A stretch of 64,000 nt of DNA from Escherichia phage Murica: sequence record NC_041871.1; one strand, 5' to 3'. A model generated the notes under the pieces. It worked only from the letters and a program-made list of their open reading frames with translations. It did no database searches and was not told where the DNA came from. Every line of letters starts with the position of its first letter. Positions within the stretch are counted from its first letter, which is position 1. Made by a program: the position numbers and the translations under genes. This document shows positions 11,868 to 61,057 of the stretch, piece by piece.

Positions 11868-12334
11868 ATATGGACTACAGCTACTGCGGGGAAGAAGTCC
11901 CTTTTAATTACAGCAATCTTACCACGAGCAATCCATATGAGACTCGCCACGGCACGCACATCATTGCCATCGACTTTGATGGAACGTTTAATGCGAGCCC
12001 TTTCATCTTCTCCCGCCTGATCAGGGATCTGAAGAAGGAGGGGTGGACAGTCTACCTTGTGACTTTCCGATTCATTACTCAAGACAATGTAGACATTGAG
12101 TATTGGCGCAAGGAGCTCGATGTTGGTGTGTTCTACACAGGTGGTGTTCAGAAGGCAGCCTACCTGGCGCAGTTTGATATCTACCCAGATATCTGGATTG
12201 ATGATTCTCCGGCATGTATTCCGGCTAAGAATCAGTTAGAGTTTGCAATGAAGGAGATTGAGTATAAGTCTGAGGCTAAGCGGAACGGATGGCCCTTTAT
12301 TATTGAAGATTACCCAGATCCTGAACCGGAGTAA
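11864..12334 (+). CDS. HAD-superfamily phosphatase (candidate nucleotidase)
   Basis: HAD motif I IIAIDFDGT (DxDxT) and motif IV IWIDDS. Confidence 0.55.
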   Translation: MNMDYSYCGEEVPFNYSNLTTSNPYETRHGTHIIAIDFDGTFNASPFIFSRLIRDLKKEGWTVYLVTFRFITQDNVDIEYWRKELDVGVFYTGGVQKAAYLAQFDIYPDIWIDDSPACIPAKNQLEFAMKEIEYKSEAKRNGWPFIIEDYPDPEPE

Positions 12335-12339
12335 GAGCC

Positions 12340-12510
12340 ATGAGGCGAAGATATCATTACCTGATGTGGAAGTTATATCAAAATGCTGCCAAAGCCTATC
12401 ATACCATGTTTGGCAATGACGATCACTACATCATGTTACATCTCACCGCTATTGAGCATCACAATGAGTGGATTCATGCAATCGTGGCAGGTGATAAAGA
12501 CTTTAAGTAA
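12340..12510 (+). CDS. small hypothetical protein, 56 aa, not in the supplied ORF track
   Basis: ATG 12340 with GGAG 8 nt upstream, open to TAA at 12508-12510; translated by hand as MRRRYHYLMWKLYQNAAKAYHTMFGNDDHYIMLHLTAIEHHNEWIHAIVAGDKDFK. Confidence 0.3.
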   Translation: MRRRYHYLMWKLYQNAAKAYHTMFGNDDHYIMLHLTAIEHHNEWIHAIVAGDKDFK

Positions 12511-13045: not shown

Positions 13046-13074
13046 TTGACACCACCACCAGATCTATATATAAT
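13046..13074 (+). promoter_or_regulatory. consensus sigma70 promoter TTGACA-N17-TATAAT
   Basis: TTGACA 13046-13051, exactly 17-nt spacer, TATAAT 13069-13074; RBS GAGGAG and ATG 13103 follow. Confidence 0.7.
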
Positions 13075-13720: not shown

Positions 13721-13748
13721 AAAGAAAGGGGCCGTTTGGCCCCTTTTT
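13721..13748. terminator. bidirectional rho-independent terminator where plus and minus transcription converge
   Basis: GGGGCC-GTTT-GGCCCC stem flanked by an A-tract upstream and a T-tract downstream. Confidence 0.7.
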
Positions 13749-13761
13749 ATTTACCCCCTTG

Positions 13762-16700
13762 TTAACGAGAAAAGGTTGCGTAGGCTTCTAGACGATACTG
13801 CTGGTCACCAGGGAACATAACACCTATAGAGGCTGTCCCTAGAATCCTGCCTTCCTTTCCAGACTCCATTCTGAACCCTACCCATCCTGAACTCCTTGCA
13901 GCCTCGATGTTGTCGCTATACCCGAAAGTGGCAAGATCGTCAACACCAGCCCCAAACAGCAACTGAAGCTGACTTCTCGGAAGCCCTATAATTTCAGGAA
14001 TATACGCACCAAAGTACACCATCTGCCCTACCTTAGGACCGCTGCCGTACTCCATCGGTTTGCTTGTAGAGAAAGTCTTCATACCAGAAGTACCTGCCGG
14101 ATTAGGGTATGCCCCGTTTGTTGCTGTACCTATCCACATTCTCCACTGTGGTGCCATCTGTTTGACAGTAAAAGATGTTGAAGACGTTTTGCGCCCTGCA
14201 TCATCTGTAACTACAAACTTTATGGTGACATTCCCAGTAGCTTTAAATGTTACCAGTCCTGTGGTGGCATCCACTGTTGCAATGTTGGTATTACTACTTT
14301 CCCAAGTCTTTCTAATCCCGGATACGTTGGAAGGGGTAATAGAAGGTTCCTGCATCTGCAGTTTACCACCAACAATCCCTATGCCGTTGCCCGGATTATA
14401 CAGCACACCAACCTCGTCTATAATGTTCCCTGCTTTGAGACTATACTTCCTTGAGAAGTTGTAGGTTCCGTTATAAGTGTGTGTCCCTGAGAAGGTGACA
14501 TCTGCCTTCCCGTAAGAGATGCAAACCAAAGCATACTTCCTGTCAGGCAACGTTTCTCCAGTCTCTGGGTGAGTTTTACCTACCTGGAACACACTCGGGT
14601 CAGTAGAGTCGTGACTATCACTAACGGAGCTTGGACCGCCCATCAACTGTGACAAACAATTCCTTACCCATGTCCAGTTATTATCGCTGGAGAAGTCCAC
14701 AGTCAAATCAAACACAACCCACTCATTTGGCTTCCACACAGGTGTTGTAATGGACTTGCCTACACCACCTCCTTGGAGTGTTGCCGACTGTTCGGTGATC
14801 AGGGCCGCATAGGCCAGAGTTCCTAAACTCAGAGTCTGGCTTGCTGTCCTCACTACCTTAGAATCAGCATCTGTGAAGTTGTTGATGATTTGGAATGTGC
14901 CATAAGTGTTTTTACAGGTAATTCTGGCGTTCAGCGTGTCAATCTTCCTCACATCTGCCATAGCAGTGTTAGACACAGAGAAGTCAGAAGCTTTAGCTGA
15001 GTTTGCCGCAACAGCAGGATCAACGTTAAGAGTTGCGTTGAACTGACAGGCAGGGGTAACCAGCAGCTTGTTATCACCTATTTGCTTCCATGAAATACTT
15101 TGGACAGGTAGATTCCATTTAATACCTGAGAAAACTTTAGCAACCCTTGGCCCCAAAGCTCCAGTCCTGTTGTCTTTACAGCACATAGACATGGTGATCG
15201 TTGACGGAGTTGCCTGACCAAATAATTGCTGTGCTTTTGCAGAGGACATAGTGTAGAAATTGTCCTTAACAAACTCATCAGCGGCTAAAGATCCGTCAGC
15301 CCTCCACCATTGAACCTGATACCCTGTTTTGTCCCAACCACCGACCTGCTTCAGGTCTTCCCAGGAGATTTCCAGATCCCCAGTGGCAGGGTTGATTGCA
15401 GCAGTTCCCGGTGTTCCGGGTGACCACAATGGAATATCGAACCACGCTGGTTTAACCGACTGCACTGCGCTGGGACCTATTGCGGCAGCAAGTTGCTGGC
15501 CCATCAATACGCGAGCATCTTTCACCAGACCCCACTCGATCATAGACCCAGAGTAACCTTCTTTCTTGTAGGCTGAGGATCCGTTCAAATGGATGAGTCG
15601 GCTTGTGCCAAAGTTATGTGCTCCACCACCGTTGTCGTCTGCAAAATTGGTTATGATTCTATCCCTGATATTTTTCCATGCCCTGCCCCCAATCTCATAG
15701 TCATGGTCATAACATCTTTGCAGTGTTGTCCAGCAAATGATCGCCATCCTTCTACCATCGCTGAATCCAAAGGCCTGATCGTTAAGCTCTCTCCACAAGT
15801 AGCAGTTAGTGGTCCACATGGCCCTATGAATGTTAAACCAGTTTATAGATTTGGCTGAGTTGTCCCACTGAGTCCCAGGTAATTCAGGCCATACTGCATT
15901 AACCAGCATGTCTTCTGTTCCTGCATCAACCAAGAACCCTCTTACCTTCTTACCCATGCCTACCCTATCTTTTGCAATCCAGCTGCCAAACAATCTCAGT
16001 TTTGGACCGTAGACAACATCTTCCGGATGCTCAAAAGAAACATATTTTAGGTATATTGTAGGGTCACCATAGGTGCCATCACAAACAGCTTTGTGCATGT
16101 TCTCGCCAAGGTCTAGACGAAGTCCTGTTACAACTTTAGACGTGTCGGTGAATTTGTCTGTTAAATCAAACTCATACCACCACCAACCTGCACCCAACAA
16201 TACTTTCTTACAACGCTGTGCGTCTGTATCAGATATTCTCTTATCCCCTGCAAAAGGTGAGTCAGCAAACTGATAGTGCAGAGCGATCTCAAAAGGATGT
16301 GTGGATGTCCCGTTTTCTGCAAGAACTTGTTTACCTATCAGGTCGCACTTAATGATCATCACAACACGTTTGTATCCGTTTGTTACCGGAATTTGCATGG
16401 ACATGGATGTCCCATCCATGTTTGATCTCAGTGCAGTCATGATGATATAAGGGTCAACTGCATTGCCCAAAGTCTCAGGACCAGGGATTATCTTATACTT
16501 CTTGACCTGCCCCATGATGTAGTCACTTGCGTAAGTTGCCTCATTCAAGCAAGATCCCCCACCAGGTAACTCACCAGGTCCCCAGAAAAATGCGCCGTAA
16601 CAGTTGTAGAACCACTTGTTAGGATCGTATTTATTCTTGAAGGTCTGAACCTCGTTGGCCTGTTTTGTCAAGAAAACCTGCGTGTCTGTGAAGATTGCAG

Positions 16701-19446: not shown

Positions 19447-21192
19447 TTAACGTTGTGCAATTACTACGTCTACGATATCACCAACACCACAATACGTTAA
19501 TTGCAGCAAGGTAACACTGTTAGCCCTGTTGTTAATAACAGGTGTTGCCGACAGGATAGCATACTTATCGTGCAAAGTCACGTTGTGACCTACAGCATCC
19601 TGAATTACATAGATAACCGCAGTGAACGGATAAGGTTTATCTTCCGCTGATGTCCCAGGCCACTGCCCTATTGTAAAATCCCCTTTAGCGTGGACAACAT
19701 ACATACTGGCCTGCCCGTTAGGTGTCCATGTCCCACTGGACGCGTCAACCTCCTCTAAATCGAAATCTACCTTCCCTGCGTGGAAAGTAGGGGCAGTGAT
19801 GGTTTTACCAGCCTCAATTTCTTGAGAGGTGGTTATCTTACCACTGGAGTTAATGCCATTACAGACAAAGTTGACATTAGAGAAGTCTGGCAGCCATCCG
19901 GTCACCGTGCCGGATATTTCAAGGTTGTGAACAGAGGTGGTGCCAGTCCCTGCTGCGTTTAAACTGACATCTCCATTTACCTGCAAGTTGCGGGTAACGT
20001 TGCAGTTTTCAGAGTTTGCAGTTGTTGCAGTTAAAGTGGTTGTTGTCAGCTCGGTAATTACACCTTTGTTGGCTGTAAGCCCTTCTCCTTCAAAAGTTGC
20101 ACGCTCATTGACTCTTAAGGTATTCAGAGCTATGTTTTGGATAGAGGCCGTACCTCGAATAACTACAGACCCGCCAACCTCCAAATCACCATTTATTAAT
20201 GCGTCACCCGTGCTTTCAATATAGCTAGGGTAGATCATGGTGCCATCTACAGAGTAGGTTATCCCTGTAACGGTGCCTGTCACCTCAAGGTTCTTAACCC
20301 TGGTGGTCCCATCGACCTGCAATGTCGGTTCGGTTGCTGACTTCATGGCATTACCACGAATGTACACGTAGTCAAAAAAGTTATTACCCAGACCATCAAA
20401 ATGCACATCGTTATTATTAGCCACTGGTTTCCCGGAAGTTATAGTGTCAGCTATAATCCTGTGGGTGGACACTTCATGAGGTTGCAGCTCTGTGCTTCTC
20501 CAGTCTGCATGCTTAGGATCGCTCCACGCAAAAGTGAGTGTAGAAGTATTTGCCGTGAGGATTAGGTTCCTGAAGCGTGCAGTAGAATCTGCTCCATTAA
20601 CAGGCCCATGTAAGGTAAGGGTGCCTCCAACTATGGTGTTGGCGAGTTCTGTAAGACCTTTTACCACCAAAGACCCTACAGTAACTTTCATCCCCTCCAT
20701 GGCTTCAAATATGCTATCAACATAGTCAACAACAAACTCTGTGTTTGCTATAGACTCTGACTTATCGTCCATTGGAGGTGTAGGTACTCGCGGGTCACCT
20801 TCGAACCTTGGGCTGTTAAGTTTTGCGTAATATTTTGCCATTACTGCAGAATCGGTGTATAATCTCCAGTTTGGAGATTGTGAAGGATCTGCTGGCATTC
20901 TAACCGGGTTAGATTTTGATGCTGCGGGAGCGTACCACCACTGAGGGCCTGTGTCCCCTTTAAACTCATACAGCTGGTTAAAAACTGTTGTGGATGCACC
21001 ATACGCCCAAGGGATCGGTGGCGTTTTAAAATAAAGGTTGTCAAGCATGGCTTTTCGTACCGTAGGGATGGTGGTCCCATCCTCTACGACAACTTCATCC
21101 ACAGCGTTACCGTTGACAACCAAGTGCAAACGTTCAGAATCAACAATTACTTGATCTACCGCCTGCTCAAAGCTTGTCATGTCTTGCGCCAT
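19447..21192 (-). CDS. tail fiber-like protein, 581 aa
   Basis: Position in the fiber cluster; Thr/Gly/Asn-rich repetitive composition. Confidence 0.4.
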   Translation of the reverse strand: MAQDMTSFEQAVDQVIVDSERLHLVVNGNAVDEVVVEDGTTIPTVRKAMLDNLYFKTPPIPWAYGASTTVFNQLYEFKGDTGPQWWYAPAASKSNPVRMPADPSQSPNWRLYTDSAVMAKYYAKLNSPRFEGDPRVPTPPMDDKSESIANTEFVVDYVDSIFEAMEGMKVTVGSLVVKGLTELANTIVGGTLTLHGPVNGADSTARFRNLILTANTSTLTFAWSDPKHADWRSTELQPHEVSTHRIIADTITSGKPVANNNDVHFDGLGNNFFDYVYIRGNAMKSATEPTLQVDGTTRVKNLEVTGTVTGITYSVDGTMIYPSYIESTGDALINGDLEVGGSVVIRGTASIQNIALNTLRVNERATFEGEGLTANKGVITELTTTTLTATTANSENCNVTRNLQVNGDVSLNAAGTGTTSVHNLEISGTVTGWLPDFSNVNFVCNGINSSGKITTSQEIEAGKTITAPTFHAGKVDFDLEEVDASSGTWTPNGQASMYVVHAKGDFTIGQWPGTSAEDKPYPFTAVIYVIQDAVGHNVTLHDKYAILSATPVINNRANSVTLLQLTYCGVGDIVDVVIAQR

Positions 21193-22523: not shown

Positions 22524-22581
22524 CGCGTTCTCCTGAGAAAATTCCTTAGGACTATTTTAACACTTTAGAGAACAAAATGCA

Positions 22582-22603
22582 AGAACGGAGTCCTTTCCGT
22601 TCT
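22582..22603 (-). terminator. rho-independent terminator after the 22613-22927 gene
   Basis: Stem AGAACGG/CCGTTCT with an 8-nt loop, followed on the minus strand by TGCATTTTGTT. Confidence 0.5.
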
Positions 22604-28884: not shown

Positions 28885-28913
28885 ATTTTACCAAATTTTG
28901 TAACAATAGTCAA
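28885..28913 (-). promoter_or_regulatory. sigma70-like promoter TTGACT-N17-TAAAAT with TGG extended -10
   Basis: -35 is reverse complement of 28908-28913, -10 is reverse complement of 28885-28890, 17-nt spacer; follows a terminator. Confidence 0.55.
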
Positions 28914-28931
28914 TCTGAGCATAAAAATAAA

Positions 28932-28947
28932 CCCCGCCGAAGCGGGG
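28932..28947 (-). terminator. rho-independent terminator, hairpin CCCCGC-CGAA-GCGGGG
   Basis: Same 16-mer as at 2501-2516; followed on the minus strand by TTTATTTTTAT. Confidence 0.65.
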
Positions 28948-28956
28948 CTTTAAAGG

Positions 28957-34155: not shown

Positions 34156-34184
34156 ATTTTACCAGATTTTAAGTTAATACGCAA
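34156..34184 (-). promoter_or_regulatory. sigma70-like promoter TTGCGT-N17-TAAAAT with TGG extended -10
   Basis: Same -10 context (TGGTAAAATA) as the promoter at 28885-28913. Confidence 0.5.
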
Positions 34185-34193
34185 TACAAACAA

Positions 34194-34220
34194 AAAGCCC
34201 CCGCCGAAGCGAGGGCAAAA
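34194..34220 (-). terminator. rho-independent terminator (variant of the CCCCGCCGAAGCGGGG hairpin)
   Basis: GCCCCCGCCGAAGCGAGGGC stem-loop followed on the minus strand by TTTTTGTTTG; directly after the stop of the fiber gene. Confidence 0.55.
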
Positions 34221-45063: not shown

Positions 45064-45113
45064 CTAGATATTGTATCATAAAATAGCCGTTTTTACAACA
45101 CCGATAAAATAAA

Positions 45114-45129
45114 GGGGGCCGGAGCCCCC
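45114..45129 (-). terminator. rho-independent terminator GGGGGC-CGGA-GCCCCC
   Basis: Perfect 6-bp GC stem, followed on the minus strand by TTTATTTTATC; just after the tape-measure stop. Confidence 0.55.
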
Positions 45130-45141
45130 CTGCACAGTTTA

Positions 45142-48266: not shown

Positions 48267-48309
48267 TTTATAGCATCCTTATTAGTCATGTTGTGCACCA
48301 TATTTGTGT

Positions 48310-48338
48310 ATTTTACCATGATTATGGTGCATTGTCAA
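48310..48338 (-). promoter_or_regulatory. sigma70-like promoter TTGACA-N17-TAAAAT with TGG extended -10
   Basis: -35 is reverse complement of 48333-48338, -10 is reverse complement of 48310-48315; about 45 nt upstream of ATG 48266. Confidence 0.5.
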
Positions 48339-48380: not shown

Positions 48381-48410
48381 AAAGCAAAAAGCCCCACCCG
48401 AAGGTGAGGC
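48381..48410 (-). terminator. rho-independent terminator after the tail tube gene
   Basis: GCCCCACC-CGAA-GGTGAGGC stem (7 of 8 pairs), followed on the minus strand by TTTTTGCTTT. Confidence 0.5.
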
Positions 48411-48428
48411 TTATGCTAAAGTGTGCCC

Positions 48429-51825: not shown

Positions 51826-51866
51826 TAATGTATTTTACCACAAAGATACATCAAAAGCAACAATTT

Positions 51867-56348: not shown

Positions 56349-56403
56349 GTGGATTATTTTATCACGCCAAAGGAGGTTTTGCAACCCCCTGTGTTGATAA
56401 TTT

Positions 56404-57960: not shown

Positions 57961-58062
57961 AAGCTTTACCCCTCAAAACAGTATAACAAAATAGCCCTCG
58001 TGTTAGAGGGCTAGTATCTCCGATTACTCTATTCTACCACATCTAATTAAGATTGGCAACAC

Positions 58063-60958: not shown

Positions 60959-61057
60959 GGTGCTAGGTGATGGAATCGAACCACCTATGTATTCAACGAC
61001 TACCTCGTCTATTTTCAGGATTAAAAATCCTCGCCCTTGCCAAAGGGCTTACCTAGC
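60959..61057 (-). tRNA. atypical tRNA-like element (99 nt): tRNA acceptor, D and T arms, but no canonical anticodon arm
   Basis: Perfect 7-bp acceptor GCTAGGT/ACCTAGC, D arm GCCC/GGGC, T arm GGTGG-TTCGATT-CCATC. The intervening 47 nt form two small hairpins (AGGAT-TTTTT-ATCCT and ACGA-GGTAG-TCGT). A Lys (UUU) reading needs a mismatched stem and a 29-nt variable region. Confidence 0.4.

Follow-up and report, generated by a model that had tools for sequence, protein, structure and literature searches.

Two predicted classes of sigma70-like promoter in the early and structural modules of an rV5-like Escherichia phage

A perfect consensus sigma70 promoter begins at position 13046 of the window analysed here, the leftmost 64 kb of the genome of an rV5-like Escherichia phage (genus Vequintavirus, subfamily Vequintavirinae), and it raises the question of whether the structural genes farther along the same DNA are preceded by promoters of the same style. 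It also frames a wider question, namely how early and late transcription are separated in a phage without its own polymerase or sigma factor. Phages of the rV5 type are widely used in phage therapy and in the biocontrol of E. coli O157, and they are represented in the BASEL collection.

From rV5 coordinate 1 (the rIIA gene) onward, the window and rV5 (DQ832317) are collinear, and over an 8-kb stretch the window shares 99.5% identity with phage naswa. Its plus strand carries the early genes 11-26, and its minus strand, from 13.7 to 59.6 kb, carries genes 27 to ~66, a morphogenesis block that includes the terminase, portal, capsid, sheath, tube, chaperone, tape measure, baseplate and fibre genes. 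The two units converge on a single element:

13725..13746: bidirectional terminator at which the early plus-strand unit meets the minus-strand structural block, corresponding to rV5 t026/t027

Two side observations concern the records and the annotation of this group. Several records labelled as ‘Campylobacter phage’ (C11, C12, C15, A112b and A13b) share 98-100% identity with rV5-like phages of E. coli; probably their host labels are wrong or the samples were contaminated. At 60959-61057 (minus strand), amid six ordinary tRNA genes, ARAGORN reports a ‘tRNA-???’ 99 nt long whose anticodon has four bases (atcc); the call may be false, or it may mark a pseudo-tRNA or an interrupted tRNA.

The promoter at 13046 and its immediate surroundings comprise the following features:

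13046..13074, plus strand: P25, TTGACA-N17-TATAAT (TTGACACCACCACCAGATCTATATATAAT), early-class sigma70 promoter, homologue of rV5 P025 and annotated as a promoter in phage Gotham
13103-13510 and 13514-13714, plus strand: gp25 and gp26, which close the plus-strand early unit and are predicted to be driven by P25
12951..12969, plus strand: stable hairpin (-13.1 kcal/mol) after gp24, without a U-tract and not a canonical terminator

P25 matches the sigma70 consensus at 12 of 12 bases with a 17-nt spacer, it is directly preceded by an UP-like A-tract (AAAATTAGGC) and it has no TGn element. The first-pass annotation had called an exact consensus promoter at 13046-13074, and this call holds: the site lies on the plus strand, no second exact copy of TTGACA-N17-TATAAT exists in the 64 kb, and 100 dinucleotide shuffles yielded none. 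The -10 lies 29 nt from an ATG that has GGAG ahead of it, and P25 would boost transcription of gp25 and gp26, the last two genes of the early operon. Neither protein has a match in Pfam, and the PHROGs that they match are families of unknown function.

Across rV5, magaca and Gotham the -35 of P25 is invariant and the -10 remains compatible with sigma70 (TAnnAT), its sequence being TATAAT in the window and in Gotham, TATGAT in magaca and TAGGAT in rV5. Because the -10 differs in magaca and rV5 while the -35 is invariant, the perfect TATAAT is a sub-lineage variant of a conserved promoter. A 121-nt query spanning P25 found 14 records at least 99% identical to it, most of which presumably carry the TATAAT version as well.

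Within the structural block, the first-pass annotation had placed promoters with an extended -10 at 28885-28913, 34156-34184 and 48310-48338. The three sites (P36, P40 and P51) are present, each with a spacer ending in TGG and the hexamer TAAAAT. Their strand, which that annotation did not give, is minus at all three, and genes there are coded on it. Five more members of the same class were found in the block (-35 starts at 22582, 45098, 51860, 56384 and 58059), and a ninth, related site stands beyond it:

22554..22582, minus strand: P30, TTGCAT-N17 (spacer end TGT)-TAAAAT-A, extended -10 TGTTAAAAT, rV5 P030, annotated in Gotham
28885..28913, minus strand: P36, TTGACT-N17 (spacer end TGG)-TAAAAT-A (TTGACTATTGTTACAAAATTTGGTAAAAT), extended -10 TGGTAAAAT, rV5 P036, aligned across genera
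34156..34184, minus strand: P40, TTGCGT-N17 (spacer end TGG)-TAAAAT-A (TTGCGTATTAACTTAAAATCTGGTAAAAT), extended -10 TGGTAAAAT, rV5 P040
45070..45098, minus strand: P48, TTGTAA-N17 (spacer end TGA)-TACAAT-A, extended -10 TGATACAAT, aligned across genera
48310..48338, minus strand: P51, TTGACA-N17 (spacer end TGG)-TAAAAT-A (TTGACAATGCACCATAATCATGGTAAAAT), extended -10 TGGTAAAAT, annotated in rV5 as ‘Sigma70-type promoter; P51’
51832..51860, minus strand: P56, TTGCTT-N17 (spacer end TGG)-TAAAAT-A, extended -10 TGGTAAAAT, 5' of a neck / tail-completion gene
56356..56384, minus strand: P63, TTGCAA-N17 (spacer end TGA)-TAAAAT-A, extended -10 TGATAAAAT, 5' of a prohead protease-like gene
58031..58059, minus strand: P64, TTGCCA-N17 (spacer end TGG)-TAGAAT-A, extended -10 TGGTAGAAT, rV5 P064
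61990..62018, minus strand: P74, TTGACA-N17 (spacer end TGA)-TAAAAT-C, extended -10 TGATAAAAT, 5' of gene 74 and the tRNA cluster

A TG at -15/-14 precedes the TAnnnT hexamer in all eight structural-block sites and in P74, the latter joining an early-type -35 to a late-type -10. The late -35 elements are weak (TTGCnn in five of the eight, and only three of six consensus bases in the TTGCGT of P40), as opposed to the TTGACA of the early ones. The late -10 block is an invariant 10-nt TGnTAAAATA; its hexamer never has the consensus T as third base and is followed by a constant A. Start codons lie 30-45 nt downstream of the late composite sites (32-44 nt past the -10 at P36, P40 and P51), and the genes behind these last three are gp36 (a baseplate wedge homologue), gp40 and gp51 (a tail assembly chaperone). 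By inspection, the other gaps of at least 40 nt in the block contain only terminators, hairpins or ribosome-binding sites.

The promoter prediction that the first-pass annotation had proposed as a check gave a divided answer. A general consensus scan found 37-41 promoter-like sites per 20 kb, compared with 31-35 expected from shuffles, and a scan so near the shuffle level cannot by itself validate any site. The specific composite TTG-N17-TGnTAAAAT, on the other hand, occurs seven times in the window against 0.08 expected (~90-fold), always on the minus strand. The looser TGnTAnAAT has 21 copies, also all on the minus strand, a bias partly explained by the A/T skew of a mostly minus-coded window; a TTG stands exactly 17 nt upstream of the hexamer in 9/9 intergenic copies and in 0/12 of the others (Fisher's exact p ~3e-6). 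The result of the general scan could be taken to mean that the matches are not promoters at all (chance hits in AT-rich gaps, RNA processing sites, or sites for a packaging or assembly regulator). This seems very improbable, since the composite is ~90-fold enriched, keeps to one strand and to intergenic gaps and precedes start codons by 30-45 nt, and its two blocks, set at sigma70 spacing, are footprinted across genera (see below). As a separate observation, TTGACA-N18-TACAAT (an 11/12 match) occurs twice within the gp36 coding sequence, at 28551-28522 and 28227-28198 (minus strand), 324 nt apart; the two may be either internal promoters or a coincidence, and their unrelated flanks show that they are not a repeat.

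The first-pass annotation had also put a terminator just ahead of each of its three structural sites, and the folding analysis agrees with it. The terminators concerned, together with a further one after the tape measure gene, are:

28929..28950, minus strand: terminator with cUUCGg loop and U-tract, -16.5 kcal/mol, 16 nt upstream of the P36 -35
34197..34216, minus strand: terminator t041 with cUUCGg loop and U-tract, -16.9 kcal/mol, 13 nt upstream of the P40 -35
45112..45131, minus strand: terminator t049, hairpin GGGGCTYCGGCCCC, after the tape measure gene, the hairpin being kept in four genera
48389..48412, minus strand: terminator t052 with cUUCGg loop and U-tract, -21.8 kcal/mol, after the tail tube gene

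For the terminators before P36, P40 and P51, none of 200 shuffles folds equally well (z -3.9 to -5.9) and 3 to 5 U directly follow each stem; the three promoters lie 13-51 nt downstream. Five of the eight late sites lie 0-51 nt past an intrinsic terminator or a terminator-like hairpin, and the -35 of P30 abuts a hairpin (22603-22582). This arrangement suggests that terminators placed after abundant products (capsid, tube and tape measure) would cut read-through and that the next promoter would re-initiate, so that the 46-kb morphogenesis block would be transcribed as about eight units. The terminator at 28929-28950 is missing from the published rV5 list, yet the rV5 sequence is identical there, and in four genera a terminator hairpin is found at this position. 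A different layout is seen at P64, where a terminator-like hairpin with a U-run (58013-57992, at ~+12 to +33 of the predicted transcript) follows the promoter and precedes the portal gene; the same layout is found in rV5 (P064, t064), and the hairpin could act as an attenuator or as a 5' stabiliser.

Within Vequintavirus (rV5, magaca and Gotham) hardly any difference separates the late sites or their flanks, and this comparison is therefore uninformative on selection. Structural blocks of 36 to 40 kb were compared from three other genera: PVP-SE1 (Seunavirus), KpS8 (Mydovirus) and CR9 (Certrevirus). The exact late composite occurs four times in PVP-SE1, six times in KpS8 and four times in CR9, against 0.01-0.04 expected, and these copies stand at orthologous gaps, as two conserved blocks separated by diverged spacers. 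In the P63 alignment TTGCAAAA and GTGnTAAAATAA are invariant in the four genera, and in that of P56 the invariant blocks are GTTGnTTTTG and TGTGGTAAAATA. At P48 and P36 the upstream terminator hairpin is found in 4/4 genera and the extended -10 is invariant, so that terminator-then-promoter modules before gp48 and gp36 exist in all four. The -35 TTG is kept in three of four genera at P48 (lost in CR9) and in two of four at P36 (lost in PVP-SE1 and CR9), the TGnTAAAAT being retained, and overall a TTG at 17 nt is retained at 13/16 orthologous late sites. Because the TTG has been lost at some orthologues of P36 and P48, the extended -10 is the core element of these putative promoters, the -35 being favoured but dispensable. 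A dispensable -35 is typical of TGn promoters. In phAPEC8 (Stephanstirmvirinae) the motif is absent before the structural genes, and the late class thus does not reach that far outside the subfamily. The same comparison showed that CR9_012 (12025-12486 of the CR9 block), annotated as a ‘putative RNA polymerase’, lies behind the conserved P56 and is syntenic with the neck / tail-completion gene (the rV5 gp56 homologue); because of this position, its label looks doubtful.

P51 departs from this pattern. It is a hybrid that combines a perfect -35 (TTGACA) with the late extended -10, and it is found in Vequintavirus only, where a strong terminator followed by P51 separates the tail tube gene from the chaperone gene. 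In the corresponding gap of the compared blocks (19927-20000 in PVP-SE1, 19917-19997 in KpS8 and 15619-15689 in CR9) the promoter is absent and a conserved hairpin, GCCACAnnGAnGTGGCC-TTT, stands alone. This absence from the other genera points to an acquisition at the level of the genus. P51 is also overlapped by a repeat:

48294-48302 and 48323-48331: perfect 9-bp inverted repeat TGCACCATA/TATGGTGCA, 20 nt apart, bracketing the P51 -10

No comparable inverted repeat was found at the other promoters checked, and this one may be an operator that regulates an otherwise very strong promoter.

With both sets of sites in hand, the proposal that the structural sites share the promoter style of 13046 does not survive, since they carry TGn and a weak -35, compared with an A-tract, TTGACA and no TGn at P25, and the two kinds occupy different regions. 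TTGACA-N17-TAnnnT is found 11 times in the window against 0.97 expected, and in the gaps of the structural block its only copy is P51; in the 64-138 kb part of rV5 it is found 21 times (12 and 9 in two regions) against ~1 expected (0.76 and 0.29). In the remaining 74 kb of rV5 the late composite, allowing one mismatch, has three matches, which is the chance level (3.2 expected). The sole exact copy there (TTGTAATTTACAGAAGGGGATGCTAAAAT, ~rV5 123662-123690, minus strand) is in the gap upstream of ORF215-213, which include an endonuclease VII gene, plausibly one with a late packaging function by analogy with T4 gp49. The early class (A-tract, TTGACA, variable -10, no TGn) is thus abundant in the early and middle regions, and the class of the structural block, with its invariant TGnTAAAATA and weak -35, is restricted to that module. 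The first-pass annotation had further suggested that structural genes are transcribed, at least partly, in discrete units from host sigma70-type promoters, and not solely from a phage-specific late class. The sigma70-type architecture and the units stand in silico; the implied addition to another late class does not, because the structural sites are themselves what has been published for rV5 as its ‘putative late promoter’ class.

The most probable reading of these sequences, and one we hold with reasonable though not full confidence, is that the phage lacks an RNA polymerase of its own, that its promoters fall into two sequence classes with sigma70 architecture, and that host Esigma70 would initiate at all of these sites. 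At the late sites, sigma regions 3.0 and 2 would contact TGnTAAAAT-A and region 4 would contact the TTG where it is present. The sequences themselves, with their statistics, position, conservation and confinement to the structural module, are what the analysis shows; initiation by Esigma70 at these sites, and any cause of late timing, are inferred. Against a plain sigma70 reading, TGnTAAAATA is conserved beyond what sigma70 needs, so an extra factor could read it, the -35 TTG is lost at some orthologous sites, and promoters of sigma70 type, above all P51 with its perfect -35 and TGn, would not be expected to be silent early.

One alternative is that the late class is sigma70-like but needs a phage factor, either a switch like AsiA or gp39 or an activator that reads TAAAATA; in both cases the unmodified host holoenzyme would not suffice for the structural genes. 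The sharp partition of the classes between modules would agree with it, as would the invariance of TGnTAAAATA over four genera, the contrast between weak late -35 elements and the early TTGACA, and the fact that promoters with an extended -10 are immune to T4 AsiA and to gp39 of the Thermus phage P23-45 (PMC2988021, PMC3950348). A scan of 13 early proteins of the window (gp11, gp24, gp25, gp26 and nine others) against Pfam and PHROGs gave one candidate, gp11, which matches Srd and ‘decoy of host sigma70’ PHROGs (E ~1e-10 to 1e-12), although its best PHROG match is labelled HNH endonuclease. No other candidate for a polymerase-directed factor, and no homologue of AsiA, MotA or gp39, was found among these 13 proteins, and the TTG kept at 17 nt in 13/16 orthologous sites suggests that the contact with sigma region 4 is still used late. 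A requirement for such a factor is rather unlikely on balance. A specific version of it, drawn by analogy with those phages, is a promoter-class switch in which an early phage protein would disable or outcompete the TTGACA promoters, TGnTAAAATA would stay active or be activated, and P51 would possibly also be held by a protein bound at its putative operator; it is a speculative and rather improbable scheme, which, if true, would give a phage group without such a known factor a strategy of the AsiA or gp39 kind.

T4 late promoters have neither a -35 TTG nor a TG. A second alternative to initiation by unmodified Esigma70 is that TggTAaAAtA represents a T4-type late promoter, like TATAAATA, read by a gp55-like sigma with no role for the -35. 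Both motifs are AT-rich and -10-like, the one described here is limited to late genes, and the constant A after its hexamer resembles the end of TATAAATA. The conserved TTG at 17 nt and TG at -15/-14 argue the other way, and no homologues of gp55, gp33 or gp45 have been reported for rV5 (PMC3606486). TATAAATA itself occurs in the window no more often than chance predicts (two copies, 2.1 expected), and both copies lie on the non-coding strand, away from the late sites; on this ground we reject this reading, which we regard as extremely improbable. A likeness of the late -35 of P56 (TTGCTT) to a MotA box was also considered, and dropped for a misfit in register and spacing and for the lack of any sign of MotA.

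If the structural genes do use a distinct set of extended -10 host-type promoters placed after terminators, this set would offer engineering elements for reporter phages and for late-timed expression of payloads. As a discovery the present analysis adds little: both the sites and the main inference have been in print since 2013. No transcriptomic study, mapping of 5' ends, in vitro transcription or reporter assay on a Vequintavirinae phage came up in the literature searched.

Several described systems can be set beside these promoters. T4 late promoters also have an AT-rich motif in the -10 region before morphogenesis genes, although its sequence differs and the sites described here have a -35 and TGn in addition. 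The P23-45 gp39 and T4 AsiA systems likewise have late genes on extended -10 promoters and another class that depends on the -35, but most late promoters here keep the -35 TTG, and they are known here from sequence alone. Extended -10 sigma70 promoters of E. coli share the TG at -15/-14, the TAnnnT and an optional or weak -35 at 17 nt, and differ in that the -10 here is fixed as TAAAAT-A, with a third hexamer base that is never T, and is restricted to one module.

Among relatives, Buttimer et al. (2020, PMC7344957) described for Certrevirus an early consensus of the Vequintavirinae, AAAA-N4-TGTTGAC-N17-TATAAT, and considered the phage wholly dependent on the host RNA polymerase. P25 shares with this consensus the A-tract, TTGAC(A), the 17-nt spacer, TATAAT and the location in a region of small early genes, and it has GC before the -35 where the consensus has TG; no late class was described in that work. 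In rV5, Kropinski et al. (2013, Virol J 10:76, PMC3606486) predicted 33 promoters throughout the genome that closely resemble the E. coli consensus, including 11 with an extended -10, and proposed that the host polymerase may transcribe the whole genome and that its modification ‘might not occur’. They listed eight copies of TggTAaAAtA before late genes 27-66, and their Table S4 includes homologues of all four sites of the first-pass annotation (P025, P036, P040 and P051). The window sequences are identical to rV5 P036, P040, P051, P056 and P030, and the same terminators t041, t049 and t052 are in the rV5 list; the differences are the -10 of P025 (TAGGAT, compared with TATAAT in the window) and the register of P048, which is not the one given here. 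That work compared the late motif with T4 TATAAATA and did not remark on the fixed TTG at 17 nt. The promoter sites and the main inference have thus been known as predictions since 2013, and to these the present analysis adds a TTG fixed at 17 nt, footprints shared across genera, terminator-promoter modules that are conserved and a partition of the two classes that holds genome-wide.
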